This document shows, one piece after another, positions 1 to 23,552 of a DNA stretch of 26,696 bases. Below the pieces are notes generated by a model. The model was not told where the DNA came from, ran no database searches, and saw only the letters and a program-made list of their open reading frames with translations. The stretch's first letter is position 1. Every line of letters begins with the position of its first letter. The translations under genes were made by a program, and so were the position numbers. This stretch comes from Psammoneis japonica (lineage: Eukaryota), in contig QPGO01000056.1 of the NCBI GenBank assembly GCA_008632985.1, positions 186,001-212,696 of the forward strand, in the 5' to 3' direction.

Positions 1-320
1 AGTTTGGAAAACATTTGTGCGTTTGATTTGTTTGGTTCACATGCATTTGCAGTGAGCGCGACCAATCTCGCGCTCATCCTCATTGCTGGACACACTGGAG
101 CCGCTTCTTTTGCGTCATTTGTGTGCACGATGCCTCAGCTTGGAACTCAACAATGACACCTGGATTTTCTTTTACACAACAAGTTTGGACAAAATTTGCA
201 TGTTTGATTTGTTTGGTTCACATGCATCCACAGTGAGCACAATCAATCTCGCGCTCATCCTTGTTGTGCGGCGTGCAGGGACCGCTTTTTTGCATCGTTT
301 GCATGCAATGGCTCTGGCTG
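1..320. repeat. Diverged tandem duplication, unit ~181 bp
   Basis: 1-~135 (agtttgga...gtttgatttgtttggttcacatgcat...agtgagc...caatctcgcgctcatcct) recurs at 182-~315 with many transitions. Confidence 0.8.
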
Positions 321-504
321 CTTGGCATGCATTTGCATTTCAATCTAATTCAGGTGCCATGTTACACAAGCACGGAACTGTTTGGCTCTGCCAGATGGCA
401 GCTCATTGCATTTTGTCCAGAGCTCTGCTGTGGCCATTTGCTTTTTTTAAGTTGCCATGTGCCCTGCTTCGCATGGTGATTTTTTGGTGTCATTGACAGA
501 ATGA

Positions 505-597
505 CAAAAAAGAGGGGAGGAGAGAGAGAGGAGAGAGAGAGGAGAAGAGAGGAGAAAAGAGAGGAAAGAGAGGAAAAGGGAGAAGAAGGCAGAAAGA
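505..597 (+). repeat. Polypurine (GA-rich) low-complexity tract
   Basis: About 90 nt made almost entirely of A and G (gagagagaggagagagagaggagaagagag...). Confidence 0.9.
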
Positions 598-1410
598 GTT
601 CAATGCTGCAAGTCCAAGTGCGTGTTGTCATGCTTTGTTTTGATGCAAAAAAGCATGTTCTTTAGTGTGCCTCCGATGAATGTGAAAAGACATAAAGTTT
701 GTAGAAACAAAGCACAAGAAAAAGTTTTCCATGTTCAAGTGAGGGTGCACCCACGACACCCAGACAACGCAGTGCAGAAAACCATCCATCACAAAAAACC
801 ACGTGCTGCAGAAGCAGCCGATGCTCGATCATTGCCGTCAAACCTTCTCTTGCAAACAACACATTAATGCAGGTCAATTCCACAATTTGCTCTGTTGTTG
901 TGTGTCCAAGAAAACAGAGGTGAGAAAGTCCCAAAATGGGTGAAAACTCCTTCTGTGTTTTTGCTGCTGTTGGCATTGCTTGATTCTCACAACTTTCACA
1001 CTTCAATTTTGTTTTTCTCGACAGATCGAAGAGCACAGACCATCCTTGTTTTGAGAATGTGTTTGATTCAACTCCTTCCCATGGAGTGAAAGAAAACACC
1101 TTGATGAGCATCGTTGCTTTATTTTGCCGCCGCCACCACGTGCTGCATGAGGCAAGAACATGCCCTGAGCATTTCTTTCATGCGATTCCACGCAGTGAGT
1201 GGTGCTCCCTTGTTCAGGGACCAAAAGGGCATGGGAGTCAGCTGTGTTGGAGAAGATGGCATTGGAGCAGGTGGTTTTGGAGCAGTGGCTGCGTGCAGGG
1301 GCTGCGATGTTGCCGTCCATGGTTGGCAAGGAGTTGGGCCACTGTGACGCCATCGATGGATGTTGGGAATGCAGTCAACTCTGCTGAAGAGCACACGACA
1401 AATCGCAGCT

Positions 1411-1773
1411 GTGAGTGGGGACTGCAATGCGACAACGCCGTCAATGGACCTCAGGAAAAAGCAGGGGTTGCGGGAACGCCAAGGGGCTGTGGTTGAGCCA
1501 TCGGGCTGTGGTGTCACCATTGGGACACCGGTCAAAAGTCGAAACAGCAGCGGCAGCAAGAGATGGAAATGGACGTGCCTGTTGTGAGGGCACATGTCGT
1601 AGCTTCGAGTGGGGACTGCAATGCAATGAAGCCATCAATGGACCTTGGGAAAGGGTGGGGGCTGCGGAAATGCTGAGGGGCTGCAGTGATGTCACCATTG
1701 GGATGCCGGTCGAAAGTCGAAATGGCAGCGGCAGCGAGAGATGGAAATGGATCTGCCTGTCATGAGGGCACAT
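1411..1773. repeat. Diverged tandem duplication, unit ~180-195 bp
   Basis: gagtggggactgcaatgc...tcaatggacct...gtcaccattggga...aaagtcgaaa...agatggaaatgga...tgagggcacat occurs at ~1413-1595 and ~1607-1773. Confidence 0.85.
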
Positions 1774-1859
1774 TTGCTTTTTGTTTTGACAGAAGGCAAG
1801 TTTTGATTGCTCTTGCTGGTGATTGCCAGTCTAGCTGCATGGCACAATGATTTCCCAAC

Positions 1860-4100
1860 TGTGGATGCATCTGGTGCTCACATGAATGTCTGCCTCCATG
1901 TCCTTTGCAGTCTTGACATTGGCAGGCACGGCAAGTCCTCCTGCCCCTTTTCTCTTTGTCAGGGCCATGCCTTCCAGGACAATGATTTTGCAAGTTTGGT
2001 GGAAGCTCATTTTCATTGAAGGCAGCAGAATTTGATCCACCAATCCTTTCAAGGCCAACAAAAAAACTGCGCTCTTGATCTGTGGGTCGCATCACCTGTG
2101 GTGGTGGGAGTTGCATTGGTTGCGGCATCATGGCTGGAGGGAGGGTCAGCAAATTTTCATGCTCTGACATTTCAGCATCATTGACCAACAACACGTCATC
2201 ATTGCTTCCTTCCAGCAGATCTGCTGGAACATTCTCCCTGTTCAATTTGTCTGGAAGTTCGATCTCAGAAGTCATCCTGTCTGCCGCATCCTGCACCCTC
2301 CTGTTTCTCTCCCATTGTTTGTGGCACTTTTTGAGTTGGTGCTCATGCTTTGGAAATGTCGTCACGCCGTTCACATGTTGAGCCCATTTCAGAGACATGT
2401 CTTTCTCGTCAAGGTGCCCATTCTCTTGCAGAACAAGTCTTGTGAACAATCTGCACTCATCCGCACCATCTGCTGGTCAGAATGGGATTGGCACTCCCTG
2501 CTGCTCGCACAAAAATTTCAAGTTGCTGGAGAAGTTGTTCTTGACTTCTTCAGGAATCTCGGCCGCTCGTGCCCGCAACATGGTGTCAAGCTCTTTGGAA
2601 TGAACAGCAACTGCAACAAAGCTTTCATTGGTGTCCAACATGTCACTGGCCACCACATGTGATGGGTGCAAGAGAATTCCATGATTCTTCTCAACCAAGG
2701 CGACCACCTTGTCAGTTTGCCATGTGTTGCAATGCCCCATTTGTGGGCAACCAGGGATTTTCTTCTCTGCCATTTGGATGTTGTGTTGGTGTCACCTTTC
2801 AGACAACAGACAGTCACTGGACACTTTGTTCACATCAAGTGTGGTTCTGACACCTGCTCGAGTTGCCAAGTCGCCTGCTTGGCATCCTGGACTTGCCTTT
2901 CTCCGGTTGTTTCGGGCATGCGGTGGCACAACATCAACCTCAAGTCCCGGTTTGGCATTGCTTGGATCAATGGGCTGAGACAGGTCTGGCAACTCAAAGT
3001 TTTTTGCACACCTCGAGGGGTTTCATGACATCATCACCAGCACATTTTATCTGTCATTGCAACAGCTCGTTCTTAGACCACTTGGAGCAACGGATGTCAT
3101 TTGACTTGTCAAGCTTCATGCCAAGAACAACATCAATGACATGCTCAAGACTGTGATTTGCACGTTGCACCACATCTCTTTCTCAAGCCATCAATCCAAG
3201 CGACACGCATTTTACAGACTGAGAGAGTCCGGGAAGGTCAAAGTCTTTTGCAAGAATGTCAAGATTGTTCTCAACATTGACACCAATGAACAAAGCCTTC
3301 TTGCTCTTCAGGAACGACAACAGCTGGTGTGGAAACAGACCTTGCTTTGGCAACTGGAACAGCAATGCAGAAACCTTTTTGTCGAGTCTGCAGCCTGTCT
3401 GCAACAGAGCAACTCTGCCAGTCTTGTGCATTCCACTGATTTGGTTCATCGCGGTGTCCCACTTGCAGTCAAAAGCATGCGGGACAGCTTCACCTTCCAG
3501 CAACCCTGACGACTCCATCTGTTCCCTCAAAGCATCAATCTTTTCATTTGTGTGCTGTGCTGGCACCAGCACTTGCATTTGCTCAGTTTCATCTTCGTGT
3601 TGTAAATTGGGATCTCCAATGTCATTGTCAAGCTCCAGATCTCCAGCTGCAATGTTGCCAGTGGAATCATCACTGCCTGAATTTCCATTCATTGCTGCTG
3701 CCATTTGGTCCAGCCACTCCTGCATTCTTTTCAACGAGTCATGACAATCCACAAGGAATTGTTTGTCCCTTGGAGCATTGTCCGAGAAAGCCATTTTGGG
3801 GCCGGATTTTCCACGTTGCTTCTCGGTGTCATCCAACACCAACAATGCGGGTTGGAGCTGTTCAAGAGAATCAGTTCTGGCAAGCACTTGAACTTGCATC
3901 TGTCCAATCTCATTTGTCCCAGTTTGCAGAGTTTCACACACGCACTTCCCTTTGCATTGACCAAGCTTTTTTGGTGCCTTCACACTTGTGTCAATGCTCA
4001 GCTGTTTCACTGATGTCTTTTTTGTCTCTGGATCAAGACAGAGCCGCAAGTCTCTGTGCTGCCAAGTCCACATGTGGAGAGGCCCTCTGTCTGGTGCACA
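1860..4100 (-). pseudogene. Degenerate Dada-like DNA transposase with embedded WRN-like DEDDy 3'-5' exonuclease; 5'-truncated and internally deleted
   Basis: Minus-strand fragments in order: LSIDTS.KAPKKL...TNEIGQ...DSLEQL...FSDN (first two catalytic-D regions); AFDCKW, GRVALLQ, FIGVNV and IRCSKWS...QIKCAGDD (Exo I-III, the last normally YA..D); DCLLSER*H.HN...GHCNTW; WAQHVNG..FPK...KQWERN; C-terminal RTCRAC..C.G.GGR..C. In-frame TGA stops are consistent with CGA>TGA. The segment expected to carry DxxH/E appears deleted near 2850. Superfamily assignment is from recalled domain order, not a search. Confidence 0.65.
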
Positions 4101-4619
4101 ATCAAGAACGCAGAAGGCGCTGTTTTATTGTCCTTTGATGGGGTTCAGTTTCTGTGCTAACATGAACCTCGGAGAACGATACGGGCGAGCAAGCATGGAG
4201 CATTGGCCCCGCTATTCATTCGTAGCCTAATGCGTCAGTGAAGCAACCCGAGAAGAAGACTAGAGTACTTGAGGGGGGAGCAAAGCGAATAATTGAACCT
4301 GTTAGGAACTACAATACAAGAATAAACCCATTACCGTAGCTTGTTTTATGTACATTATGGATACCTAGGGCCCAGAGTCGGACCCAACGTAAAAATCGAG
4401 TGTTTGCTTCTTGGTTATAGGTACATCTCACCGAATTTAGTTTGTTTACTATGGCCGATCTTGTTGAGGATCTCATTTTCTCAGTTGTTTGTACAACTCG
4501 TGACATGAGAAAACCCATTTGGCTTATGTGTCCTGCGCTTGAATTATGGGCTAATTCGAGTGTGAGCGAAAAATGATGCAAAAAGAGTCGCAAATCCAAT
4601 ATTCGCTTGGAGTAATGAA

Positions 4620-5520
4620 TCATTGGAAAAGATCGGGAAGTCGACGCCGATACCACCATTTGGTCTGCAGACAACCGATGGCACCACCTCCTGGCCTTTC
4701 TCCCGAAAAGGCATGGACTACAGTGTAGGGATCAAACCCATATCGTCTGCTCCTCGCACCTTTACCATTGTCTTCTCTCATATATCTTGAAAACTTATTC
4801 AAAAAGGTTTCGCCTCCACCGCATACATTTGCAGTCTGGCCCCTGAACGGGCGGTTGTTGGCTGAGCACCTACCGCCCTCGAGATGCATGCGAGTAACCT
4901 GCAGTTTGACACACATGGTCTTCTCGTAAAAGATTGCGGATGCCTTGGCAACAATACTGGTAATCTTGCTTTTGCGCTTTCCACTTGTTGGTTCCTCCCC
5001 ACCTTTCGCAGAACAAACCATCATAAATGAAGCTCACCTTGATCGTCTTGAGGCACTGACAATTGCGGCCATTGTTGAGATTGTTACGGCATTGAAGCTC
5101 GCGCTCTTCCATGGGAAAGAGTTCTTCGGCAGCTCCTCGCAAGCTTCTTGTGGGACCTCCTGAGTCGTCTTCTGCGGGAGGAGGTAAGCCTTCGCCAAAA
5201 TGAATACCGAGGTCACGGAGAGCGTTTATTAGATCAATATCGTCCGGAGAAAACGTCACAAACGAGCCATCCTTTTGTCTCACGAGAGAGGTTGATCGTC
5301 CTGGTGCCAAAATGTCTATTTCGCTCATTATCCTATAATCGTCAACTGTGGCAGGGAGTGTTGTATCGTTGTATTCCCCAATGTAGACAGCGACTGGCAT
5401 CTCCTCTAATGATATCTTATTCCTTACCGTGTCTAGGTTTATAAGCTCATATGAATCGGGTGAATAGATTTCAGTATGAGGAACCAGTTTTACCAAGTTA
5501 TACTCCGTACCGTCAAGGGT
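4620..5520 (-). CDS. Hypothetical protein, probably spliced; 5' end unresolved
   Basis: Normal TA/CG content. The 208-aa ORF (5496-4870) has natural-looking composition. A GTGAG donor at 5037 and a CTGCAG acceptor at 4899 join it in phase 0 to ORF 4620-5024 (...CQCLKTIK|VTRMHLEGG...). No domain recognised. Confidence 0.35.
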
Positions 5521-6650
5521 CTGTTACGATTCCCTCCACCAAGACGGTTTGTTCTTCCACCTGAGAACCGGGTTTGAGAAGGTCAAGGCTCCCCAAAGCA
5601 AATACAAGACAGCACTAACCTTTCAAAACTACTGTATAAAGAAAATATTCAATGAAAGAAGTGTGAGTAAAGAGAGGAAATGAATAAATAAACATCAAAG
5701 TATGGGTCGGTGTCAGTCAAAATACCGGTGCGAGACCACCCGAGTGTGTGGCCGATGTTGCTCGCAACAGAAAAGGTGTGTTGGGTGAACAAACATCCAA
5801 GTGTGGGTCGTCACAAATCTCCTCATTTTGCGGCGATTCCTGTCAATGTGACAGTGCAATGTTTCTCGCCACAAAGAATCAAACACACAGCATGACCAAG
5901 ACATTGGAAACTTTTCGTGACTATGGTTAATCGATATCAACAGTGGTTATCATCAGAGGAAGTGAACTGAACGAATAAAGATCAAAGTATGGGTTTTGCC
6001 GCTCAGAAATGGCCGACAAAAGCAAAAAGACCCATCTTTCGATTTCTACACAACCATAACACCGTTTCTCGCCAACCCAAGGCCCTTACCTAACCATTTG
6101 ACCTCCTAAAAGTAATATCCGTGTCTTCAATGAACAAAAACGATGAAGAATAGCACAAACAAGGCCGAGTATGGGTCGCCGAGCGTCATCTCCAAAACCA
6201 CCCAAATCCACGTTCCGAAAAAACAGTCTCTCCGCTCTCCGCGCGCAAATCCCACGGATCGCGCGAAAGATGGCTCGTGGCGCGGCGCGGGTCGAGTCAT
6301 GCTTCCGCGCCGTGGGTTCAATCTCAATCGTGATGGGTCCGGGAAGAAGAACCTAACCTTTTTTGCCACAAGCGATAGATGTTGTGTCACAATCCCAGCA
6401 GCACGCTTGTTAAAAGCAGCAAGTTTGATCAGCAATAAAGAGACGAGGGGTCAAAAGAACAAAACAAGTGATGAGCGAAACTCAAGGGCAACAGGTGAGA
6501 GAGAGGGCGACGACAGAGTTTGGCGAAAGTTATATGTGTATGAACGCGATGAGCGATGAGAACACTATTATGCACTTATCGTGACTAATATTCTTTTGCT
6601 TTTATATGTAAATCAAGAGCATTCCGTTGCTGTCGACGGAGCTATCCGAG

Positions 6651-8488
6651 ATGAAGACCTCAACTGCTTCGGCAGAAGAAAAGCAACAAGTCGCTCAAGC
6701 GGAGGACACACCCGCATACGCAATTCTTCAAGCGTACGGGCTTCTCAACACATCGTTTCGCAAGGAACACTTTGATGACATTTTTGATAATCAAAAAGAC
6801 TTGACGGCCAACTCCAGCAGTTCCAAAAACATCCTGAAGAGACTGAAGTGGGGTGTGTACTTTACACCTGGCTGTGGATTCGTCCTTTATGTGAGTATTA
6901 TTTCGTGTCTGTGTGATACAAACTCAATACCTCTCTCCAGCTTTCCTCAAACACGTCTCGATGCATGTTCCGTTCGTCCATAGAATGTATTCAACACGGA
7001 GGTCACGGTTCCGCCTGGTCATGTGTGCTGTTTTATTGATAACGACAATGACTACCTCCTTGCTAGACCAGGGATTCATAACATTGGAGACCCCTTCCTA
7101 CAGCAAGTTGGATACCCCATCCCCGTTCTTCAGCAAGTCATTGAGCACGGCAACCGAACAATTGTTACGATTCCGCAAGGAAAGCTTGGCTATGCCGTTG
7201 ACATGGGCCAACCAGTGCTTTTACCACCAGGCTTGCACTCGTGGACGAGCGAGACACTTCGTTACGTCCGTACGTTTGAGCTTGACGAGCATGTCATTGA
7301 AGTCGGGCCGTACACGATACTGACTGTGGATGAAGGGTGAGGCGACACGCGTGTGTTGGTGCAACAGTTCAGTTTAGATTTTTTTCTTGATTGCTTACCC
7401 TTTTTCCCTCGGTGATTTCGAACAGGTACTCTGCAATTACCCAAAATAATGGCCTTCAGATCGTGCTGGATGGAGGGAAAACGCACTTGTTGACGCATCA
7501 AAAGTGGCGGTTCGAAAAGTTCATTACGGAAAAGATCCAGACAGACGATCTTGAGCGGATCCGGGCGGCATCGGCGGACAATGTCATCATGTCGGTCAAT
7601 TCCACCGTCGTGTGGAAGATCAAGGACGTGCGTGTCGCCGCTACAATGGCTGCTGAAACCATGGCGAATACCACCACTGGAGCCGTTTCCGCGGACATTA
7701 CCAAGCTTCGCCGTGATGTACTCAAGCAAGCGATTGCATCTCTGGCGGGGTTCATTGGATCCGTCAACTATTCGGATTCGTTTCATGTTGCAGCCGCAGC
7801 ACAAAGGAACATTGAAACAGCCGCCCAGGTAATTGCTGTGGAAGGATCTACGGAGGAAACGCAGCAGCAAGAGCCACCCACAGGGAGAATGGCCAACACG
7901 GACAATCCAATGTTTGACGCAGAAGGTATGAGTGATGCAGTCGCTCATGCTAATCAAATCACCAGCAAGTTTGGCGTCGAGATCCTTTGTATCAACATTA
8001 TTTCGGCGAATCCAGTCGACGACCACTTGACAGCATCGTTGGCTACTGGAGCGGTAGCTTCCGCTGAAGCTCTCCAAGCCGAAACCCAAGCCCGTGGTAC
8101 CGCCAAGGCTTTGAGAATCAATGCCGAAGCCGCCGCCATTACTCGAAAGATTGATGCCGACTCCAGGGCCATGGCAACGCTAATTGAGGCTCGCGCAGAG
8201 GGAGAAGCAGAAAAAGTACGAGCCGAGGGCAGCAAGGCCGCTGAAATCCTCCGTGCCGAGGGATCCAAACAGGCCGCAGACCTTATCGAGTCTTCCAAGG
8301 TTGCAGTATCTCTCGAAACTATGAAGCAATCCGCATTGGCGATCAAGAAAAGTGACAAGTTCTTCTTTGGACAAGAGCCGGGTTATTTGCCAAACGTTAT
8401 CATGCGTTCCGAAAATCGTGATGACGACTCTGGTGAATATCTAGTACCGCCGTCAGGTCAGACCGCGGCCCTCCATAGCCTGGCGTAA
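6651..8488 (+). CDS. SPFH/band-7 (stomatin/prohibitin-like) protein, 551 aa; exons 6651-6890, 6984-7336, 7426-8488
   Basis: Introns GTGAGT...TAG (6891-6983) and GTGAGG...CAG (7337-7425) join in frame (GFVLY|NVFNTEV; TVDEG|YSAITQNNG). SPFH-like core (SADNV.MSVNSTVVWKI.D...FGVEILCINIISANP) is followed by an AE-rich coiled coil (AEGEAEKVRAEGSKAAE). An additional upstream exon cannot be excluded. Confidence 0.88.
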
Positions 8489-8537
8489 CTCAGATCGGCC
8501 TTATTCTCCATCTATACTTAAAATGCATAAACTAGAC

Positions 8538-8606
8538 GATGACAACTCTGGAGAGTGTTGGGCAGTACCATCGGATCAGGTCGCGGCTCTCCATAGCATC
8601 GCGTAA
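8538..8606 (+). repeat. Codon-aligned duplicate of the last 23 codons of the SPFH gene
   Basis: 8420-8488 encodes DDDSGEYLVPPSGQTAALHSLA*; 8538-8606 encodes DDNSGECWAVPSDQVAALHSIA*. Same length, no indels. Confidence 0.85.
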
Positions 8607-8679
8607 CACGCGTTGATGTTGCCCTCCTTTGGTTCTTTATAGCAGCTCACACTTCAAATAAATAGTACAGTAACCGTAA

Positions 8680-10024
8680 TCAAGCGATTGGACGTTTCTC
8701 TTCTTCGGCTTTTTCTTGCTTTGCGATCCGTTCTTTGCGTCGTGCTTCAACTCCGCCGCCTTGTCCGATTGTGTGAGCAGGAAATTTCACGATTATTGCA
8801 GTCATGTTGTCTTGACTCCCAAGATCCAGCGACATGTCGAGCAACTGTAACAATCGGAGTGAGAAACAAGAGTGAGAAGCAAATGATGAATGGTGCAATG
8901 AAAGTCATTTCGTGACTCACCTCCTCGCATGCAAGCCCCAGGTTGGACTCGCCCTGATTGAACAAATCTGAGACAAAGGCTACGCCCTCCTCATTGGTAT
9001 GGACGTCCCAAATGCCATCACAAGCACATACCAAGAATAAATCCTTCTTCGCATCACGATTGTGAACGGATATTTCTGGAACGGCAGAAAGCTTTTGTGA
9101 CTCGGGGGATAAAGCCGGGGGCATCTTCGTGTCGCTTGCCTCAATGGCAGCCAGACCGATTTGAGACGGCTCTCGTTCCAGTACAATAGTTGGGTTTTTG
9201 AATCGGAAGTCTCCCAAAGCACGACTGACTGCCACGTCTCCGTCCACTCTGCCGTCTTCCACAAAGCCCCCAGCATTTACAATACGTTCCTCTTCTCTGG
9301 GACATGAAGGTTTGTGATCGCTACTCAACGGAATAGCTAGCAAATCCTCCGTGTTTTCGTCTTGTTGACACAGAACGGCCCGAGAATCACCCACAGAAGC
9401 ACATATGATTGATTCAGGTGTAAGTAGGATCAAAGAAACAGTGCATCCCGAATCTTCCTCTGGAAGTTGCGGCACGGATATTCGAAGGCCACACTCCGCA
9501 ACGGGTGGCGCAACGTCTTCGTTCTCAGGATTACCTTCTTCATCAAGAAAAGGCGTACCCTTTTGAACTTCAAGGTAAAGTTCTTTATCCAAATCTAAAA
9601 ACGTATCTCGTAGCGCAGCTTTGAGAAGAGGTAGCAACTGTTCCTCTAGAACAGTGGAGTCGATGGTCTGCGTTTCTCTCTGTCTTGCATACCGCACAAG
9701 AGTAGGCTGCCGACAAAGAATTTTCGACAAGTGTTGTGATGCATACTTTGCTGCAAATTTCCCACCATGACCGTCAAACACACAAAAAAGATAATGCCCA
9801 TAAAGTGTTTGTATTTCACCCCAGTTGTTTGGAGGCGGTGCACCTCGGACGCGGCTTTGAATCGTCAAAGATCCTTCTTGAGGAACAATGTGCGCATCCT
9901 CTTGTTCCGTTCTCCAACCCTGCATCGCAGATACTCCCCACTCAATATTCTCGTCATTATCAAATGTAAGAGTGCCCACATGCGTCTCCTTCTCTGTGAT
10001 TGGGTTCCTTAGCACGTTTCCCAT
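8680..10024 (-). CDS. Protein phosphatase 2C (PPM family), 422 aa; exons 10024-8921 and 8844-8680
   Basis: MGNVL.NP..EK start (MG, possible myristoylation), then QGWR..QEDAH, FDGHGG, VGDSRA, DHKP, VSRALGD and ACDGIWDV. A 76-nt GTGAGT...TACAG intron (8920-8845) restores LACEE|LLDMSLDLGSQDNMT. Confidence 0.95.
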
Positions 10025-10716
10025 TGCCTTCTTTTTCTCGCTGTAATCTTCGTGTTGATGTGTGATGTGCATGATGTTCCATGTTTCTCATTTCTCTCAA
10101 AGTAATAACTTCACGCCAGGGAGTTGCGTGAAATGTCAAAATTTTCGTTTTTCCCTGGGAGTTGCATGAAATGTCGAAATTTTCGTTTTTCCCTGTTTTT
10201 CGTGGTTTTTCGTGTTTTTTCGTGACGATAATTCATTTTACACATCCCCTAAAACGTTGCATTTTGGGCTATGCGAACACCAGACACCAGATAGAAGATG
10301 GGGTCGAACGGCGAACGCGGCGATGGTTCGTTGATGCGAAGCGAAAGTCAGTGCCGTCCACCGTCACCGTGCATGCCATCATCATCCACAAACCTGTGTC
10401 ACCAGTCAATCTAAGATGACAAGATGGTGAAGCTAATGCCAGCACGTTGATTTTCAAAAAGAGATTGGAACGATGGTGCGCAACAAGTCCAGATTTACAA
10501 TTAACTCTATTCCGACACAAAACCATTTTCTTATCGTGTCTTCGTGTGCTCCACCACAGATTCCCGGCAAAATGGTTTCAGAACAATGCAGATTCAGAAA
10601 ACAAGGGCACACAACAAGTGAGTGGGCAGGAACCCATGAGAAAGGTTGCCTTCATCTTGAAGAAGGCCCCACAACTCGCACACTACTGTATGTCCTGCAA
10701 AGTGCTCAAGTATGAC

Positions 10717-11321
10717 TGTGGGATTATTGGACCACTGCGCCACTCGTCACCAAAAGAGCTCCCCGTAGAGGGGTGTTGATCGTTTTGCAATTTATTCAGT
10801 GGAACTGCTGAGTTGGCAGTGATGCGCGAGGTGCGCGCAGAATCATCGGAATTGTGGATATTCTCACACTCCCCAGCGGACGGATCACGGATGGATGTTC
10901 AAGGTGAAGGAACTGGAGTGGTCTGGACGTAACTGAGTCTTGAAGATGATTCGATGTAAGCGTGTGTGCTTGATGTGGTGCGTGCCACGTGATGTCAGCG
11001 TTGTGACGTTTGACGTTCTGAATGTTGTCTTGTTGAAGATTGAGCTCTTCCCCGCGGTGCAGACATGCGTGCGAGTAGGGGAGGATCAGCTTTCCGAGAT
11101 GAGCGAGCGTGCTGAAGGATCTGAAAGTTGGGAATCGAACCCTTGTCCTCTAACGTCGTATTGCAACCATGTGGGATTATTGGACCACTGCGCCACTCGT
11201 CACCAAAAGAGCTCCCCGTAGAGGGGTGTTGATCGTTTTGCAATTTATTCAGTGGAACTGCTGAGTTGGCAGTGATGCGCGAGGTGCGCGCAGAATCATC
11301 GGAATTGTGGATATTCTCACA
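10717..11321 (-). mobile_element. TRIM (miniature non-autonomous LTR retrotransposon), 605 bp, recent insertion
   Basis: Identical 152-bp TG...CA LTRs (10717-10868, 11170-11321) with 5-bp TSD ATGAC (10712-16, 11322-26); the site is empty in copies B and C. On the minus strand: a PBS-like TGGTTGCAATACG follows the 5' LTR, a PPT-like GGGGAG abuts the 3' LTR, and AATAAA lies in the LTR. The 301-bp interior is non-coding. Confidence 0.95.
11131..11195 (-). promoter_or_regulatory. Candidate type-2 RNA Pol III internal promoter (A box and B box) spanning the TRIM LTR/PBS junction
   Basis: Minus strand: TGGCGCAGTGG (11195-11185) matches the A-box consensus and GGTTCGATTCC (11141-11131) matches the B-box consensus, at tRNA-like spacing. 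Confidence 0.5.
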
Positions 11322-12941
11322 ATGACGCGAACCCATTGGTTCCAAATCCATTCCGATCTTGTCTGCCTCTGAATGACTGTCCTTGCAAGACAATCTACTG
11401 TGGCTCTGGGCAGGCGCATTTGTATGGTGAGTGGTACAGTCGTGTGTTGCGCATTTGACATTTCACACCATGCTAAAATGATTGATGCCGCGCCATTGCC
11501 ACACAGCAGTGTTTTTGTTGCCGCAGGTGGATTGATGGTTCCATGTGTTGTTGGGCAGGGTTCTCATTCGTTTCCAACGTCTAAAAACAATGTTTTGATG
11601 TTAGGCCTTTTAGAGAGATTCCCTTCGGGAACGCTTTTGGTGCGGTTTCGGAACGCTTTTGGTGCGGTCCCGGAACGGTGGAAACACGGGAATGACGAAA
11701 TGCCTATTTCGTCGAATGGCATTTCCGTGTTGGAGCCATTGGCGGTTGTCATAGATATGGTTTATTGTCAAACAATGCCAGCAGTTACAATGCACCCTCA
11801 CAGTTCAACTTGTGGCCACTGTAACTCAAAATTGTTGAGACTTCTACCAGCCGTTCTTTTTCTTAGAGAAAATAGAAACCTGTTTTGACGGGTGCACCTT
11901 TTTGCAATAAATCCACACAATCTGTTAAACTTTTACACTGTTGTGCCATGCTCAAATAGTTCTGACAACAGTGCACTAATTGCGGTGCATCACATGTCTC
12001 ATTGGCGAATTGACCGGCTCCAAAGTTTGATTTCCGCGCGAATTGGTGCATGTGAGAACGTTCTCGGAACGCTTTTGGAACGCTTTTGGAACGCTTTTGG
12101 AACGGCATGCAAGGGAATCTTGAACGACAATAATCCAAAATGGTCTCCAGCCCCAGTCCCCCCCAAGAGGCCTTTTTTGGTTTTGGCGGTTGGAGCCATT
12201 TGGCGGGTTTGAATTTGAAATTGCACTGTCGCACGAAGCGATGAGGTTGAGACAGTCGTGACTGGTTCAAATCGGAGTTCGGGATCGAGAAGGGAACTCA
12301 ACGGCGTCTCTTGCAGTCGTGCGGTGCCATGCGTGTCATCATGCGTGCAGAAACGCCGTGACCGACAACGTGATGTGCTCATGGCAACCACCCATGATGT
12401 GTGCATGGACACACAAATTTGAACACAGTAGAAAATGAGCGCACAGGCAGGCACCGATAGAAGGTGTCGTCATCATCGATTGTCGCACCGTTTTGTCGTT
12501 CATTTCAGTGCTTGATGTCACCATGCCAACCCAATTGAGTGAGTGCAGGTTGTCATTTTTCACGCACTGTGCAACATCATTTAAACATTCTCATTCCATC
12601 CAGTGGGTTGTCTTCTCAACGAGAAATTTTGGCGGGGTCTGGTGAAGACACAACCACCTGCATTTCTGGGGGCATTTTGTCTCAGCACTGGTTGGGAAAA
12701 AAGGCAATTGCTGAGAAACCTTCCATGGAATTTTGACATTTTGTCAAATCAAACAGAGCCCCAAAAACACAGGATTTGTCCTGCAGCCAAATGCAACATT
12801 GTGTGTCTGTGGCATGTCCCCTGGCAAAAAGTGCGAGCAGCGTTTTGGTGGCAAGTGCACAAACTTTCGCAGCATCGTGCAGACTGTGGCGGCACTCGCG
12901 TGCAGGCGCAGGTCTCTCTGACATTCTGTGCGTTTTTCCAG

Positions 12942-15900
12942 GGAGTTGCATGAAATGTCAAAATTTTCGTTTTTCCCTGCAAAAACGCACAGAATGTCAG
13001 AGAGACCTGCCTGCACGCGAGTGCCGCCACAGTCTGCACGATGCTGCGAAAGTTTGTGCACTTGCCACCAAAACGCTGCTCGCACTTTTTGCCAGGGGAC
13101 ATGCCACAGACACACAATGTTGCATTTGGCTGCAGGACAAATCCTGTGTTTTTGGGGCTCTGTTTGATTTGACAAAATGTCAAAATTCCATGGAAGGTTT
13201 CTCAGCAATTGCCTTTTTTCCCAACCAGTGCTGAGACAAAATGCCCCCAGAAATGCAGGTGGTTGTGTCTTCACCAGACCCCGCCAAAATTTCTCGTTGA
13301 GAAGACAACCCACTGGATGGAATGAGAATGTTTAAATGATGTTGCACAGTGCGTGAAAAATGACAACCTGCACTCACTCAATTGGGTTGGCATGGTGACA
13401 TCAAGCACTGAAATGAACGACAAAACGGCGCGACAATCGATGATGACGACACCTTCTGTCGGTGCCTGCCTGTGCGCTCATTTTCCACTGCATTCAAATT
13501 TGTGTGTCCATGTGTACATCACAAGCAGCTGCTGTGAGCACATCACGTTGTCACGGCGTTTCTGCACGCATGATGATGCGCATGGCACCGCGCGACTGCA
13601 AGAGACGCCGCTGAGCTCCCTTCTCGATCCCGAGCTCCGATTTGAGCCAGCCACGACTGTCTCAACCTCATCGCTTTGTGCAACAGCACAGATTTCAAAT
13701 TCAAACCCGCCAAATGGCTCCAACTGCCAAAACCAAAAAAGGCCTCTTGGGGGGGACTGGGAGTTGCACGAAATGTCGACATTTTCGTTTTTCCCTGTTT
13801 TTCGTGGTTTTTTGTGACGACAACTCATTTTACACATCCCCCAAAGCTTTGCATTTGGGGCTGTGTGAACACCAGACACCGGACAGATGGGGTCGAGTGA
13901 AGAGCGAACGGCGAAGGCGGTGATGGTTTGTTGTGCGAAGCGAAAGTCAGCGCTGTCCACCGTCACCGTGCACGCCATTGTCATCCATGAACCTGGGTTG
14001 CCAGTCAGTCTAAGATGATGAGATGGTGAAGCCAATGCCAGCACATTGATTTTCAAAAAGAGATTGGAATGATGGTGCGCAACAAGTCCAGATTTACAAT
14101 TGACTCTGTTCCGACACAAAACCATTTTCTTGTCGTGTCTTCATGTGCTCCACCACAGATTCCCAGCAAAATGGTTTCAGAACAATGCAGATTCAGAAAA
14201 CAAGGGCACACAACAAGTGAGTGGGCAGGAACCCATGAGAAAGGTTGCCTTCATCTTGAAGAAGGCCCCACAACTTGCACACTGCTGCATGTCCTGCAAA
14301 GTGCTCAAGTGTGACGTGAACCCATTGGCTCCAAATCCACTCCGATCTTGTCGGCCTCTGAATGACTGTCCTTGCACGACAATCTGCTGTGGCTCTGGGC
14401 AGGCGCATTTGCATGGTGAGCAGCACAGTTGTGTGTTGCGCATTTGACATTTTGCGTTGTTGTGCTAAAATGATTGCTGCCGCGCCAGTGCCACACAGCA
14501 GTGTTTTTGTTGCCGCAGGTGGATTGATGGTTCCATGTGTCATCAGGCAGGGTTCTCATTCGTTTCCAACGTCTAAAAACAATGCTGTGATGTCAGGCCT
14601 TTTAGAGAGATTCCCTTTGGGAACGCTCTTGGTGCAGTCCCGGAATGCTTTTGGTGTGGTCACGGAATGGCGGAAACATGGGAACGACGAAATGCCCATT
14701 TCGTCGAATGGCACTTCCATGTTGGAGCCATTGGCGGTTGTCATGGATGCGATTTAGTGTCAAACAACACTGGTGGTTGCAGCACATCACAGCAGTTTAA
14801 CTCACAGCCACTGCAACTCAAAATTGTTGAGACTTCCAACAGCCGTTCTTTTCCTTAGAGAAAACAGAAACCTGTTTTGACGGGTGTGCCTTTTTGCAAC
14901 AAATCCATCTAATCTGTCAAACTTTTGCGCTGTTGTGCCACACTCAAACAGTTCTGACAATGGTGCACTGATTGCAGCGCATCACATGTCTCATTGGCGA
15001 ATTGACCGGCTCCAAAGTTTGATTTCCGCGCGAATTGGTGCATGTGAGAACGTTCTCGGAACGGTGTTGGAACACTTCTGGAGCGCTTTTGGAGCGGCAT
15101 GCAAGGGAATCTTGAACGACAACAACCCAAAATGGTCTGGCCCTCAGTTCTCCCCAAGAGGCCTTTTTTGGTTTTGGCGGTTGGAGCCATTTGACGGGAT
15201 TTGAATTTGAAACCTGCACTGTCGCATGAAAAGCGATGAGGTTGAGACAGTCGTGGCTGGCTCAAATCGGAGTTTGGGATCGAGAAGGGAACTCAACGGC
15301 GTCTCTCTTGCAGCCGCACCTGCCATGCAGCACACTCATGCGTGCAGAAACGCCGTGACAACATCATGCATGTGCTCTCACAGCAACTCCGATGATGTGC
15401 ACATGGATGTGCAAATGTGAACACAGCAGGAAATGAGCTGACAGGCGGGCACCGACAGAAGGCAACGTCAGCATCGATTGTCGCACCGTGCTGTCGTTCA
15501 CTCAGTGCTTGTGATGATGCACCATGCCAACCCAATTGAGTGAGTTGTTTTTCACACACTGCACAACATCATTTTGACATTCTCGCTCTAGTGGGTTGTC
15601 TTCTCAACGAGAAATTTTGGCAGGGGTCTGGTGAAGACACAACCACCTGCATTTCTGGGGGCATTTTCTCTCGGCACTGGTTGGAAAAAAGACAATTGTT
15701 GAGAAGCCTTTCATGGAATTTCGACATTTTGTCAAATCAACCAGAGTTCCAAACACACAGGATTTGTCCTGCAGCCAAATGCCTCGAATGTTGTGTGTCT
15801 GTGGCATGTCCCCTGGCAAAAAGTGCGAGCATCGTTTGAGTGGAAAGTGCACAAACTTTCGCAGCATCGTGCAGACCGTGGCACTCGCATGCAGGCAGGC

Positions 15901-17348
15901 AGGTCTCTCTGACATTTCTGTGCGTTTTTGCAGGGAAAAACGAAAATTTTGACATTTCATGCAACTCCCTGGGGCCAGAGACTATTTTGGATTGTTGTCG
16001 TTCAAGATTCCCTTGCACACCGTTCCAAAAGCATTCCAAAAGCGTTCCGAGAACGTTCTCACATGCACCAATTCGCGCGGAAATCAAACTTTGGAGCCGG
16101 TCAATTCGCCGGTGAGACATGTGATGCATTGCAATTGGTGCACCATTGTTGGAACTGTTTGAGCATGGCACAACAGTGTAAAAGTTTAACAGATTGCATG
16201 GATTTGTTGCAAAAAGGTACACCCGTCAAAACAGGTTTCTGTTTTCTCTAAGAAAAAGAACGGCTGGCAGAAGTCTCAACAATTTTGAGCTGCAGTGGCC
16301 ACAAGTTGAGCTGTGAGGGTGTGTTGTAACCGCTGGCATTGTTCGACAATGAACCATGTCTGCAACAACCGCCAATGGCTCCAACACGGAAATGCCATTC
16401 GACGAAACAGGCATTTCGTCATTCCCGTGTTTCCACCGTTCCGGGACCGTGCCAAAAGCGTTCCGAAACCGCGCCAAAAGCATTCCCGAAGGGAATCTCT
16501 CTAAAAGGCCCAACATCAAAACATTGTTTTTAGACGTTGGAAACGAATGAGAACCCTGCCCGATGATGCATGGAACCATCAATCCACCTGCGGCAACAAA
16601 AACACTGCTGCATGGCAATGGCGCGGCATCAATCATTTTGGCATGGTGCAAAATGTCAAATGCACAACACACGACTGCACTGCTCACTGTGCAAATGCGC
16701 CTGCCCAGAGCCACAGTGGATTGTCTTGCAAGGACAGTCATTCAGAGGCAGACAAGATCGGAATGGATTTGGAGCCAATGGGTTCACGTCATGCTTGAGC
16801 ACTTTGCAGGACACACAGCAGTGTGCGAGTTGTGGGGCCTTCTTCAAGATGAAGGCAACCTTTCTCATGGGTTCCTGCCCACTCACTTGTTGTGTGCCCT
16901 TGTTTTCTGAATCTGCATTGTTCTGAAACCATTTTGCCGGGAATCTGTGGTGGAGCACACGAAGACACGACAAGAAAATGGTTTTGTGTCGGAGTGGAGT
17001 TAATTGTAAATCTGGACTTGTTGCGCACCATCACTCCAATCTCTTTTTGAAAATCAACGTGCTGGCATTGGCTTCACCATCTTGTCATCTTAGATTGACT
17101 GGCAACACAGGTTTGTGGATGATGATGGCATGCACGGTGACGGTGGACGGCACTGACTTTCGCTTCGCATCAACGAACCATCGCCGCGTTCACCGTTCGA
17201 CCCCATCTGTCTGATGTCTGGTGTTCGCATGGCCCAAAATGCAACGTTTTACTGCAGGGGATGTGTAAAATGAATTGTCGTCACGAAAAAACAGGAAAAA
17301 CCACGAAAAACAGGGAAAAACGAAAATTTCGACATTTCATGCAACTCC
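12942..17348 (-). mobile_element. TIR element copy B (reverse), split by copy C into 12942-13759 and 15972-17348
   Basis: Reverse complement of copy A. The sequence resumes exactly across the copy C insertion (ggggga-CTG...CTG-gggccagagac). Confidence 0.88.
13760..15968 (+). mobile_element. TIR element copy C (forward), complete 2209 bp, nested in copy B
   Basis: Both TIRs are intact, with a perfect CTG TSD at 13757-59 and 15969-71. Confidence 0.93.
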
Positions 17349-19188
17349 CAGAAAAAGCGTTCTCCGAGCTCGCGACGCGATCTTCAGTCTGCTGGTGGGA
17401 GCGCGTGAGCGCGAGCTGATCGGCATCCGCACCTTCCCATCCATGCATTGGAGAAACTGACCTCTTCGCTGCACAACAGTTTGAAGGAGTCCCTCATTTT
17501 TTGAGTTTGTTTGAGGAAGAGACAACAAAGAGTCAGCAGGAGGGCGTGCACAGAGAACGGGCTCTCTTGAGCCGCAGCACGTGCGGCACCAGGCCACTCC
17601 TCTGAGCGGCACAGCACACAAACCAAAAATGAGCTCTGGCAAACATTTGCCACCTTTTCTTGCATGACACTGCTCCAGATCTTTTTGTTCTGAAGCCTCT
17701 TCCTTGCCTTTGTTCAATGCTTTCTTTTTCAATTTTCCTCTTTCTCTCCCCCCTCGTCGTCCCCCCCACCCATGTTTTTTTTTGCCAAAACGCCCTTTTT
17801 TGTTGTTGGCGGCAAGCCCAGTGTTCACATGTGGACCTTGACAACTGTTGTGTTTGGCAATCAAGCAAACATGTTGTTATTTCACAAAGCAGCACAATGT
17901 GAAAAATGTTTGCACTCAGCACATGTGGACTCACACAGTGCAAAGAACCTGCGCCGAGTCAAGTGCCTTGCAACAGGAACAGCGGACATTGCAAATTTTC
18001 CACAACTTGTCGAAACACAATGACAATGGTGACCTCGAATGCAACATGCTCCACCAGTGGCCATGTGCTCACCACAACACTGACATGCAAGGACAGCACG
18101 CATTTAATTTCATGTGTGCATGCCTTTGATGTGCAGCAAAAAAAATGGGCGTTTGAGTGGGACCGCCGACTTGTCATTTCCACCTTTGTCCTAAAAACAG
18201 CATTGCATTTGAATGAGGCCATTTGCAGTTGTTCATTTTAAATGTTAAAATTGTTTGATGATTGTCCATGAAAACAAGAACATCAGGCACCGCAGTCGAA
18301 GCACGACGATGACGGCCATCATGTCATCTCTCAAAATTGGCCCAGTGGCATGAGGGATGGAAGTGCATGCAAATCAATCTACACTGCATCACAACAACAA
18401 AGCCAATGAGCGTTCCTTGTGAGGTGATGCTTTGCAACTCACCGCTTGTTGCAAACATTGTTGTTGTCACTCGTGCTTTTGTTGTTGTGTTGTTTTCTGT
18501 TGCAACCCATCAAAAATGTGGAAAAACCCGGAAAAGGGACGTGCAAAAAAAGAGCCAACGTCCCCCTTGAGCAGGAAAAAAACAACTCAGGTTGTCCCCC
18601 CTGCTGTGTCAGGAGGCCACAGCGGCTCCCCCTCCTCATCATTTTGCTGCAGCAGCTCAGCACCGTGCCCACTTTGAATGCGCTGCCCAGCTGTTTTTTG
18701 TGCAATGATGCATGTGCTTCCTCCAGAGTGGTGACAACAGTGGTGCAAAAGACTTTTTGCAGCTGCTCAAAATGTGGGATTTGCGTGACCACTGCCAGAA
18801 GTTGAGTGTTTGTCACTTGGCCTTGAAGACATCATCATTTCTCTCTCTCTGTCCTGATGACACACCACTCCTCTTCTCCTCTGGCTGGTGTGGTGCACAT
18901 GACCTTGTGTGGTTCACTGTGCTGGTCAGCCCCCACAGTCAATGTGAGAGCACAAGCTGTGGAACAATGGACAGATTCATGTCATGGGCGTGGCCACTGA
19001 TGTTTGTTGATTGGCCTCTGTGTTGATCACATTTTGTCCCTTCAGTCTAAAAAAAACATCCCATTTGCCATCAAAAGGGATTTTCCTGACAACAGTCATT
19101 TGTTGGCAGAGTCAGACATCAAGGATCAGGCAAGTCAATGGAGCAATTGACATGGTGTTGTGCAGCATGATTTCCAAGTGTCATCCTC

Positions 19189-19919
19189 CTGTGCTTGATG
19201 TGCATGAGGCTGGTCAATTGGCAACTTCTGTGAAGGAGTGTGTTGGAACATTGGGGCCAGAGGTGGTTTTCACAAGACAGACAAAGTTGCAGTTCAGGGT
19301 GCAGTGATGATTGTGGACAATGTGGCAAGTTTGCATTCATGACTCGGTTGAGTTGTGAGTCTTGTGCTCACTTTTTAGCTTCTGCACCTGGTTGACACAG
19401 TGATGACAGCTGGCAACAACAGCCAATGTGTTTGCAATTCACAAAGTGAGCCAGGAGATGGCAAGACCAAATGTCCACTTGATTGCAAATTCCAATCTAC
19501 TTTCCCAGCCCTTGTCTGCAGATGTTTTTCAACTTCCCAACCTTTGAATGATGCCACTCCTTTGAGTGTCATGCTGCAACTTTTTGGTTTCTGTGTTGGA
19601 GCTTTGTGGCTTGCTGACTGGTGCACATTGGGTCTCGCTGTCTGTGAAATCACCATGTGGCTTGCAAATGCATTGCCACATTGCTGTCAACTGCTGCTGC
19701 TGTGTTGACCAAGTGCAAATGCTAAAAGGCAAGCTCAAGACCTGCAACTCAACCTCTGAGCTGTGAGAATGCAAACTTGCCACATTTTCCACAATTGTCA
19801 GTGCATCTCACACAGCAACTTTGCACGTCTGTCCTGTAAAAAACCACCTCTGACCCCAATGTTCTAACAGTTGTGTGCTGTTTGTCAGGAGCTGCCAACT
19901 TTTGTTCCATCAAGCACAG
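19189..19919. repeat. Diverged inverted repeat, arms ~19189-19368 and ~19732-19919, spacer ~360 bp
   Basis: gaacattggggccagaggtggtttt...caaagttgc...attgtggacaatgtggcaagtttgcattc...ggttgagttg matches the reverse complement of caactcaacc...gaatgcaaacttgccacattttccacaat...gcaactttg...aaaaccacctctgaccccaatgttc. Confidence 0.8.
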
Positions 19920-20060
19920 CCATGTTTCCAAAGTTGAGCAAACCAAGCAAAGTTTGATCAACAAATTCTGTGCCTGGCAGTCATTCTGTTGTCAACAAGG
20001 AAGTTGCACCCAGCTCCATGGTGCTGCACATTTTTTCAAGTTTGCTGAGTTCTCAGCTCC

Positions 20061-21440
20061 ATGCCAATGGAGCTGGCTCCTGCTGTTTTGACAAAATGCA
20101 TGTCTGCACGCACAATTGAGTTGGCAACACACTGCACCAGCACACCAACATTGGCTCAAAACAATCTGCATTTGGAGGGGAAGGGTCTGGGACCAAATGG
20201 GCAAGATGAGCAGCCTGAGTTGTGCTGTGTAAGTTTGGAGGAGATGCCAAATCTTTTCAAACTGGTGCCACCACAGCAGCTCCAGTTTGATGATGAGCAA
20301 GCTCAATTGAATCACCAGAGACAATTGGCACCCCAAAAAAAAGCTTTGAGAGAAAAATTGTGAACAGTCATTCTTTTGACATGTTGACATTGGTGAATTG
20401 ACAATGTGCTGGGAGCATGGTAAATTTCTGTTTCTGCAGATCTTGTCATGGTGCAGTGGAGTCATTGGGCACTGTGGCATTGTTTGTTGTTTACATGAAC
20501 ACATTCACATGCACATCTGCATGTGCACAATTTGTTGACTGTGTGCTCTGAAGCTGACAATGACAAGGATGTCTTAAAAGCCAGAGAGATGGCATCTCGA
20601 TCAACAACATCTGGAGTCCATCTTGACACCATCTTGACAATGGAGCACACAAAAAAATGACAAACTGCAAGACCAAGATGCCGACTCTCGAAATGAGTCT
20701 GGATCCAGCTACAATTTCCTGCTTGTTGCCATTCGTTTTCTGTTTTTGGGCTGATGAGATGATGGCTAACTGACAGTTTGTTGTCGCATGTTGTTTGTAA
20801 GTCTACACGTTGGATTCTAAATGCCATGTGGAAGTTCTTGTGCAACGAATCGAGATGTTGTTTGACCCTTTCGATTGTCTCTGGAGCAAACCAAAAAAGT
20901 GGTTTAGATTTCAACAAGCGCAACATGCCACCGATCAGTGCGACACGCAGATGTTTCATGTTGATTTTTTAAACATTAACACACATCATGTTGTGTGCAC
21001 AAACACAATGATGGCTCTCTAGAGAGGAGCAGTGCAGAACAAGTCAGGTCTTCCCATGCGAAAGTTCTCATAGTCCGGATGTGCTGAGCAACACGAAACG
21101 CCTTCAGCAAGTCATTGTCTCTTTCATAGCCGACGAGCTCATGGCGGCGGAAGCTGCCGCGGTTCCCCATCTCCTCAAGCCCTGCATGCCTCTTTTGGAA
21201 ATGACTAAGTTGCTTTCCAAGGCGACGCCGCAGAGATGCGAAAGTCATGGAAACTATGGCAAGTCCTGGATGAGTCCCCAACCAGGCGCTAGCATGATTG
21301 GCAAGTTGTTGGAGTTTGATAGGCAAGGACAGGAGAATGTCATCAACTTGATGGAGTCAGTGCCTGTTCAGGTCCACAAATCAGCATGGAGAGGCCACAA
21401 AGAGAGATTCGTGGAAACTTGAATGACAATGCCAGCCTAA
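20061..21440 (+). pseudogene. Fragmented coding remnant of unknown family
   Basis: Protein-like fragments at 20061-20363 and 21081-21422 end in TGA. The second continues to TAA at 21438-40, about 65 bp from the convergent host gene's stop. Confidence 0.35.
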
Positions 21441-21504
21441 AGATATTGTGTCGGTCATGAGAGAACGTTCTGGGCACGGGTTGTGTTGTGGCAAGCCATG
21501 TACC

Positions 21505-22841: not shown

Positions 22842-22966
22842 GCTCGCAACACGGTGGCACCACTCTAGCTTGTAGGGATTCTTGACGATACAGGGTTCAG
22901 CTCTTTCTGAAGAAGCGTTTGTCTACCGGTACGTGAAGGTGGAGTGAGGCAGTTTCAAGTTGAAAA

Positions 22967-23452: not shown

Positions 23453-23552
23453 TCCAGCCACCTCCAAATGCACTGCATGAGCTGCGCAGGGCGCAGTGGA
23501 GGCTGTGATAAATTGGGTGGGAGAGGTGGGATCGTCTGGCGGGCTGTGGCGG

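Follow-up and report, generated by a model that had tools for sequence, protein, structure and literature searches.

Conversion of TpA to TpG or CpA in mobile and repeated DNA of the diatom Psammoneis japonica, a likely counterpart of the hypermutation of Bigelowiella natans

Why should the dinucleotide TpA be nearly absent from repeats that border host genes of ordinary composition? The question is raised by a stretch of 26,696 nucleotides of the diatom Psammoneis japonica (NCBI GenBank assembly GCA_008632985.1, contig QPGO01000056.1, positions 186,001 to 212,696 of the forward strand; this whole stretch is hereafter the window, numbered from its first base), which carries two TA-poor repeat regions, on either side of a block of host genes, and, to the right of that block, three copies of a transposon that we call A, B and C. 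A preliminary description of this DNA had noticed that homologous sites of the three copies read TA, CA or TG, and had proposed a repeat-targeted hypermutation of TpA to TpG/CpA, a sort of reverse RIP (repeat-induced point mutation). Our analysis points to a process acting on DNA itself, by which silenced mobile and repeated sequences lose TpA in favour of TpG or CpA, and we give this reading about three chances in four; the process would be driven by an enzyme, aimed by chromatin or position, and similar to that reported in Bigelowiella natans (Mettrop et al., bioRxiv 10.64898/2026.01.13.699255).

The loss of TpA is severe and has a sharp edge. Block 1-4126 contains 15 TA, an observed/expected ratio (o/e) of 0.06, where the local genic ratio predicts 155 (Poisson P 2e-47), and region 12001-20500 contains 45, an o/e of 0.08, where 324 are expected at the genic ratio (Poisson P 2e-84). 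In genic DNA the o/e of TA is 0.57 (4127-10116) or 0.63 (22001-23500). The left border lies at about 4127, with one TA in the 500 bases up to 4001 and 28 in 4001-4500. The counts first given by eye, about 16 TA in 1-4130, none in 1834-3047 and about 30 in the next 480 bp, therefore hold (15 in 1-4126, none in 1833-3047, 28 in 4001-4500), and so does the remark that the host genes are normal, the ratio of 0.57 being that of the block with the PP2C and Band 7 genes. AT dinucleotides are not depleted (o/e 0.84-0.87), and TG and CA are in excess, with ratios of 1.54 and 1.84 in 1-4126, where CG stands at 0.43, and of 1.69 each in 12001-20500. In the left block the excess of TG plus CA (~272) equals the deficit of TA (~140) plus that of CG (~134); in 12001-20500 the excess is 577 against a deficit of 477 for TA plus CG.

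The same loss can be read in a protein. The left block includes a decayed gene for a WRN-type exonuclease domain, which has no Tyr in 197 residues, and the four aligned positions that are Tyr in WRN read L, C, M and C. Since the codons of Tyr are TAY, and TGY is Cys, the Cys at two of these four positions supports loss of TA. One of the positions changed from Tyr to Cys corresponds to the Tyr of the Y-x3-D motif, for which we assume a catalytic role in WRN-type exonucleases. This domain, which lies inside a TA-free multicopy block, may have been borne by a transposon or may be a dead copy of a host gene. A further observation on the TA-poor DNA concerns its reading frames: TAA and TAG stops are gone, leaving many overlapping frames of 120-313 codons on both strands, with no match to a protein family.

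Copies A, B and C provide the aligned sites on which the direction of change can be examined. Self-comparison of the window, by BLAST and by a three-way alignment of the copies, revealed three full copies of a non-coding element of ~2.2 kb with terminal inverted repeats of 38-41 nt (Table 1). The layout first proposed had to be corrected in two respects: copy B is one minus-strand element (17348-15972 continued by 13756-12938) that is split by the nested copy C, and copy A contains a young insertion of 605 bp. Copies A and B lie tail to tail as a palindromic dimer of 7.2 kb. Each of its outer ends carries the same terminal repeat, the array is flanked by CAG on either side (10117-10119 and 17349-17351), and it looks as if the dimer had inserted as a single unit. 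Pfam scans covered 15 stop-to-stop open reading frames of the window and the read-through six-frame translations of 1-4130, 4131-7390, 17350-21500 and 21400-25300; they found no protein family encoded by the element, which has no reverse transcriptase either, and no transposase within the window. The element is a DNA transposon derivative and not a retroelement. With PIF/Harbinger-like non-autonomous DNA transposons it shares the terminal inverted repeats of 38-41 nt, the 3-bp target duplication (CTG/CAG) and the lack of coding capacity, and the difference is that the window is without a transposase; 3-bp target duplications of the form CWG/TWA are presumably linked to this superfamily. A scan of metagenomes for the terminal-repeat motif yielded 14 loci that had only a 19-mer in common with the window and ordinary TA ratios, and we regard them as chance matches.

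The insertion in copy A has two 152-bp terminal direct repeats that are 100% identical (family D4), TG..CA ends and a 5-bp ATGAC target duplication, with a TA o/e of 0.37. It must be very young because it is found in copy A alone and is absent from B and C. To the eye its internal part looks tRNA-like at about 11130-11210, but the scans for tRNAs (ARAGORN) and Rfam families found nothing and so did not bear this out.

A site at which one copy has CA and another TG implies an ancestor with TA or CG. The three-copy alignment contains 35 sites with the pattern {CA,TG}, 13 with {CA,TA,TG}, 16 with {CA,TA} and 7 with {TA,TG}, and the four site triplets quoted in the preliminary description are all present (in the order A/B/C: gcTAtg/gcCAtg/gcTGtg, ctcTAt/ctcCAc/ctcTGt, caagTAtgac/caagCAtgac/caagTGtgac and aatcTActg/aatcCActg/aatcTGctg). 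As a control, we counted in the same alignment all dinucleotide pairs that are two transitions apart: CA/TG accounts for 54 sites, AC/GT for 8, AT/GC for 6, CC/TT for 5, AA/GG for 1 and CG/TA for 0. Three unrelated repeats of the window gave the same picture, CA/TG making up 17 of 25 double-transition sites, and it recurs between the internal repeats of 1-4126. At least 77 sites can be assigned an ancestral TA, of which 36 are retained in A, 14 in B and 11 in C, and A>G in the contexts AA, CA and GA affects 0.3-1.9% of opportunities; A>G at TA is thus well above that in other contexts, and the earlier claim of TpA-specific transitions on either strand is confirmed in the copies. Contigs of a public sequencing run, X1, allowed a comparison with other genomic copies, for which 40 of 157 differences were listed. 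Among the 29 listed in repeat regions outside 5686-6793, the other copies have TA where the window has CA or TG in 8, and the reverse in none. The comparison of copies therefore supports TA as the starting state and TG or CA as the products, each arising when one of the two base pairs of TpA goes from A:T to G:C.

How fast this happens can be judged from A and B, which are recent sisters, ~1% apart, because few private changes occurred elsewhere: outside TA and CpG contexts we counted 9 in A, 13 in B and 85 in C. Nevertheless the two disagree at 46 of the 77 TA sites, and B is changed at 25 of the 36 sites where A keeps TA. By a crude estimate, TA is lost at ~0.6 events per base against ~0.0065 elsewhere, roughly 90-fold faster, and, by an equally crude one, ~8 times faster per site than CpG is lost in the same three copies. 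Such fast loss of TA explains why old copies end with almost none.

The outcomes look independent. At the 23 sites with TA in A that are changed in both B and C, the same product arose in 11, where 12.5 are expected under independence, and the number of runs of TG and CA outcomes along the three copies (21, 35 and 34) is close to that in shuffled series (21.4, 30.2 and 33.9), so that the runs test detected no strand-coordinated clusters in any of the three copies. The following base, by comparison, matters a great deal. A>G in TAA occurred in 7 of 76 opportunities, against 57 of 172 where C, G or T stands 3' (P 4e-5), and of the 60 TA remaining in TA-poor DNA, 49 lie within NTAA (equivalently TTAN), compared with 131 of 304 in DNA of normal composition (P 3e-8); the base 5' of the T has little effect. 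The TAA context is refractory. Lastly, the change occurred on DNA and not by way of an RNA copy, as shown by the terminal inverted repeats and the 3-bp target duplication of the element and by sister arms that have been mutated in place.

What aims the process is the next question. All TA-poor bins are multicopy, with k-mer depths of 100-1532 (100-409 in 1-4126) against 58.6 for unique DNA, the latter measured over 6671-9338 in run X1. The two sisters have fared unequally, A keeping 36 of 77 TA and B 14 of 77 (Fisher P 0.0003), and within copy A the 1.8 kb adjoining the PP2C gene kept 31 of 53 TA, whereas the distal part kept 5 of 24 (P 0.003). This unequal fate of A and B and the sparing near the gene are more in keeping with an effect of position or chromatin than with the sensing of homology.

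The signature, its direction, its context, its restriction to repeats and its action on DNA in place are thus shown: once a copy has inserted, A:T to G:C transitions strike either of the two base pairs of the palindromic TA, independently for every copy and strand and site by site, an A followed by A (TAA/TTA) is largely spared, and the changes stop sharply at the border of a host gene. Beyond this we propose a cause. An enzyme would probably be responsible, most likely an ADAT2/TadA-like deaminase that acts on DNA and converts adenine to hypoxanthine, a kind of candidate already named in the preliminary description, and silent chromatin or position, rather than repeat homology, would aim it. 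The process is probably of the same kind as the TpA hypermutation of B. natans.

Several points weigh against this reading. The sequence of one window cannot reach the enzyme or a DNA modification, and sameness with the B. natans process is drawn from the signature. The polarity comes from three copies and indirect outgroups without a family consensus, so that the confinement of the substitutions to TpA reflects comparison and not de novo events. The absence of strand runs would lend no positive support to a processive deaminase working on a single strand. Gene conversion between A and B near the centre of the palindrome, where the 3' arms are 97% alike, could distort their comparison. Finally, 5337-6670 is multicopy (depth 345-487) yet has normal TA, which makes repetition insufficient. 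The idea of a repeat-targeted reverse RIP stands in so far as the changes are confined to mobile and repeated DNA, whereas repetition, given this segment and the 36 against 14 TA kept by A and B, would be no more than a putative trigger. As to 5337-6670 itself, at 3 of the 11 places listed (5686, 6057 and 6087) TA of this segment is replaced by TG/CA in other copies, and it may be a still unmutated member of a family that is mutated elsewhere.

The main mechanistic alternative that remains would place the lesion on the other base. Thymine at TpA in silent chromatin could be modified, to 5-hydroxymethyluracil, 5-formyluracil or a base-J-like product of a TET/JBP enzyme, and then mispair with G or be mis-repaired, giving T>C. 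In double-stranded DNA, T>C at TpA is indistinguishable from A>G, and all our sequence results fit equally. Moreover, 5-hydroxymethyluracil of dinoflagellates and base J of kinetoplastids are enriched at T followed by A. A literature search on 5-hydroxymethyluracil and diatoms nevertheless gave, in titles and abstracts, reports of the base in dinoflagellates and none in diatoms. The authors of the B. natans study, in the main text of their preprint, favour deamination of adenine (10.64898/2026.01.13.699255). On balance we think a modified thymine improbable, though it is the competitor to be taken most seriously.

Error-prone repair synthesis by a polymerase of the Pol eta type, the other candidate of the preliminary description, recruited to methylated or damaged repeat chromatin and writing G opposite T at WA hotspots (W, A or T), would account for the predominance of transitions (237 of 284 variable columns in the three-copy alignment), and A>G at WA is a known bias of Pol eta. 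Its expected context is not what we observed. No rise in A>G is seen where an A precedes (8 of 426 opportunities, compared with 3 of 27 where a T precedes), so that W reduces to T alone, and TAA, the classical hotspot of somatic hypermutation, is here refractory (the 7 of 76 given above). We consider this explanation decidedly unlikely.

A CpG ancestor would need no new process: deamination of 5-methylcytosine on one or the other strand would have given TG and CA, with TA arising by a further C>T. CpG decay does occur in these repeats, as had been claimed, as a process separate from the loss of TA (31 sites with {CG,TG}, 18 with {CA,CG} and 3 with {CA,CG,TG}), and it is far advanced in 19001-20000, where CG o/e is 0.06. 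However, CpG decay cannot remove TA, the o/e of which is 0.06-0.08, and no CG/TA double differences were found. Of the 122 sites with CG in any copy, 98 survive in A, 96 in B and 85 in C; because so many survive and triple loss is rare, decay is too slow for a CpG ancestor to supply the 35 sites with CA and TG only. We see very little room for it.

An artefact of sequencing or polishing, in which a modified base at TpA is misread and the DNA really has TA, deserved attention since random TG and CA outcomes would also be expected if a modified palindromic TA were miscalled in a strand-dependent way, and a run of 828 N shows the assembly to be scaffolded. A misread modified base, or unrepaired hypoxanthine, should leave mixed TG/CA reads at each site, and none were found in the contigs of run X1. 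Where reads might have shown TA, these contigs reproduce the TA-free stretches: at the depth of ~58 that is flat over unique DNA in this run, they show 0 differences from 1313-1727, 2395-2805, 3882-4571 (across the border) and 17775-18359, runs of 411-690 bases without half-and-half mixtures, and contigs at 17323-17783 and 18507-19194 have 1 and 2 differences. Indels, CpG changes and nested insertions also separate the copies, as in real paralogues. Run X1 possibly stems from the very sample that was assembled, and no library type is recorded for it, which makes it a not fully independent witness and counts somewhat against us; even so, an artefact seems to us highly improbable.

Editing of transposon transcripts by an enzyme of the ADAR/ADAT type, followed by reverse transcription and reinsertion, would match in its preference for a 5' U, and the arms of A and B could form long double-stranded RNA (inverted pairs I1-I7), but it is barely credible for an element that is bounded by terminal inverted repeats, is flanked by a 3-bp target duplication and encodes no reverse transcriptase, and whose sister arms, like the tandem repeats, diverged at TA sites in place. 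To our knowledge, ADAR is confined to animals. Equally hard to entertain is GC-biased gene conversion or selection against TA, which would agree with the net change from AT to GC and with 3' arms of A and B that look homogenised (97%), and is contradicted by the rarity of A>G in AA, CA and GA (0.3-1.9%), by the undepleted AT (0.84-0.87), and by the fact that the copies are non-coding and lose TA independently.

The coordinates of the features are collected in Table 1. The window is diatom nuclear DNA: the top named relatives of the PP2C protein are all diatoms (Ditylum, Amphora, Seminavis, Cylindrotheca and Attheya, identity up to 45%), and those of the Band 7 protein are Attheya, Odontella, Triceratium and Eucampia at 75-80%, with Seminavis (64%) and the pelagophyte Aureococcus (61%) behind them. 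In a collection that does not include the proteins of the source itself, these matches would suggest a diatom that is probably polar-centric.

Table 1. Position, strand and character of the features of the window (o/e, observed/expected ratio)
Feature	Position	Strand	Remarks
Left repeat block	1..4126	.	Multicopy, TA-poor, CpG-reduced; ~180-bp tandem repeats and decayed WRN-type exonuclease gene
Decayed WRN-type 3'-5' exonuclease domain	2940..3530	-	PF01612, E 1.9e-6; WRN exonuclease 2fbt_A, E 5.4e-10; in-frame stops read as X
Host-gene block	4127..10116		Normal dinucleotides, internal control; TA o/e 0.57, CG o/e 0.99
Band 7/SPFH gene	7391-8488	+	Weak Pfam Band_7 match, E 3.5e-4, 21.1 bits, under the 23.6-bit cutoff
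PP2C phosphatase gene	8747-10087	-	Pfam PP2C, E 5e-53
Copy A	10120..12944	+	38-nt terminal repeat doubled (10120-10157 and 10158-10195); partly mutated
Young insertion in copy A	10717-11321	+	605-bp miniature LTR-like (long terminal repeat) element
Copy B, 3' part	12938..13756	-	Near-palindrome with the 3' end of copy A; inverted pairs 97% (I3) and 99% (I14)
Copy C	13760..15968	+	Nested within copy B; 3-bp CTG target duplication 13757-13759 / 15969-15971; heavily mutated
Copy B, 5' part	15972..17348	-	From the three-way alignment
Further repeat DNA	17352..20500	.	Poor in TA and CpG; 0-5 TA per 500 bp; k-mer depth 113-887

The repeat DNA to the right of the array gave no Pfam match in six-frame translation. 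CpG drops to 1-2 per 500 bp in 19001-20500, and across 18501-20500 it is 1-8 per 500 bp against 25-33 expected, the CG o/e in copies A, B and C being 0.7-0.95; 18501-20500 represents older repeats that bear both decay signatures. Beyond it, a minus-strand open frame of 461 aa (23345-24730; DNA of 60% G+C, TA o/e 0.21) has a sub-threshold match to Phage_integrase (E 0.14, 12.4 bits, cutoff 27.1), and may encode a Crypton- or DIRS-like tyrosine recombinase. Just upstream of this frame, two direct repeats of 156 bp (22967-23122 and 23297-23452) are 100% identical and lie 330 bp apart, and the pair may be another young terminal-repeat structure. The scan that gave the integrase match found nothing beyond it, PP2C, the weak Band_7 and the exonuclease domain. 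The 828 N form one run, the scaffold gap at 25303-26130.

What would such a process mean for the genome that has it? We put forward tentatively, as a conjecture that may well prove too broad, that erasure of TpA is a conserved genome defence of Stramenopila and Rhizaria, and perhaps of the whole SAR group (Stramenopila, Alveolata, Rhizaria), in which a nuclear enzyme rewrites TA in silenced chromatin. The candidates would be an adenine deaminase of the ADAT2/TadA type or a thymine-modifying dioxygenase; the action would be saturating on diatom transposons, and the gradient from copy A, near the gene, to the internal copies would reflect coupling to heterochromatin and not to homology. If true, this would be a third dinucleotide-directed genome defence, beside CpG decay through 5-methylcytosine and fungal RIP, and its targets would lose TAA and TAG stops, TATA elements and the TA, TTAA and TWA target sites of transposons. 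Diatoms are a major eukaryotic group of large ecological weight, and the signature found here moves TpA hypermutation from a curiosity of one species, known from the main text of a 2026 chlorarachniophyte preprint, towards a possibly widespread mode of defence. Any mechanism must now reckon with action on DNA and in place, sparing of TAA, absence of strand runs, a pace ~8 times that of CpG decay, and sharp borders with a weaker effect beside an active gene. There are practical consequences as well. TA-free repeats give long false open reading frames that mislead gene prediction, and transposon ages based on divergence come out far too old unless TA sites are masked. As some diatoms are open to genetic manipulation, knock-outs offer a way to look for the enzyme responsible.

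Among known systems, RIP of ascomycete fungi is alike in being a dinucleotide-specific transition hypermutation of repeats and transposons, with sharp borders and genes spared. It runs from C:G to T:A, mostly from CpA to TpA, and so makes TA and stops, whereas here TA is destroyed and TAA/TAG stops vanish. RIP also needs duplication, a premeiotic stage and a cytosine methyltransferase homologue of the RID/DNMT type, while the unequal fate of the sister copies in our window argues against pure sensing of homology. Decay of CpG by deamination of 5-methylcytosine resembles the present case in that a palindromic dinucleotide is lost to TG and CA by a transition on either strand, and it runs in these same repeats; it concerns CG instead of TA, is the slower of the two per site in copies A, B and C (~8 times), and is secondary here. 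The deaminases of animals, ADAR (A to I, with a 5' U preference) and APOBEC3 (C to U), likewise edit foreign nucleic acid with a nearest-neighbour preference, UA being preferred by ADAR. They act on RNA or on single-stranded replication intermediates, and APOBEC leaves strand-coordinated clusters, whereas the changes described here lie in resident double-stranded DNA without strand runs.

The closest relative is the hypermutation of TpA to TpG/CpA in integrated viral DNA of B. natans (Mettrop et al., bioRxiv 10.64898/2026.01.13.699255), which has overtaken the initial statement that no description of such a process was known. According to the main text of that preprint, 231 of 302 nuclear mutations in mutation-accumulation lines fell in two integrated viral regions; 230 of these 231 were A>G or T>C, and all of these GC-biased mutations were on TpA. 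Mutation there ran at ~1000 times the average of the genome, at about 1e-7 to 1e-6 per site per generation, in some lines only; DDE and reverse-transcriptase domains were over-represented among coding sequences depleted of TpA, and an ADAT2 homologue was proposed as a candidate (10.64898/2026.01.13.699255). In both hosts foreign or mobile DNA is mutated and host genes are spared, and TpA is depleted with gain of CpA and TpG, in clusters of windows in B. natans and in the two repeat regions here (TA 0.06 and 0.08, TG 1.54-1.69, CA 1.69-1.84), which fall within the depletion thresholds of that work. As far as sequence can tell, the diatom case shares the defining features of the B. natans hypermutation in its transitions confined to TpA, its depletion of TpA with gain of TpG and CpA, and its mobile targets beside spared host genes.

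The differences, set against the main text of the same preprint, lie in the host, a rhizarian there and a diatom (a stramenopile) here; in the approach, mutations having been measured directly in mutation-accumulation lines there and deduced from paralogues here; and in the target and extent, which are single-copy inserts of a giant virus and virophages, so that no repeat is required, with a mild loss of TpA (Rho 0.45) there, and small non-coding DNA transposons and tandem repeats with an o/e of 0.06-0.08 here. The preprint mentions neither diatoms nor stramenopiles, its main text gives no trinucleotide context (10.64898/2026.01.13.699255), nor does that main text contain the refractory TAA, the absence of strand runs or the gradient with distance from the gene that are seen here. 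Our literature searches, which miss most subscription journals, found no report of TpA hypermutation in a diatom; a SPLASH preprint among the results applies the word hypermutation to immunoglobulins only. What is new in Psammoneis japonica is thus a first stramenopile case of what is probably the same kind of hypermutation, one that has run to near saturation and in which TAA is refractory.

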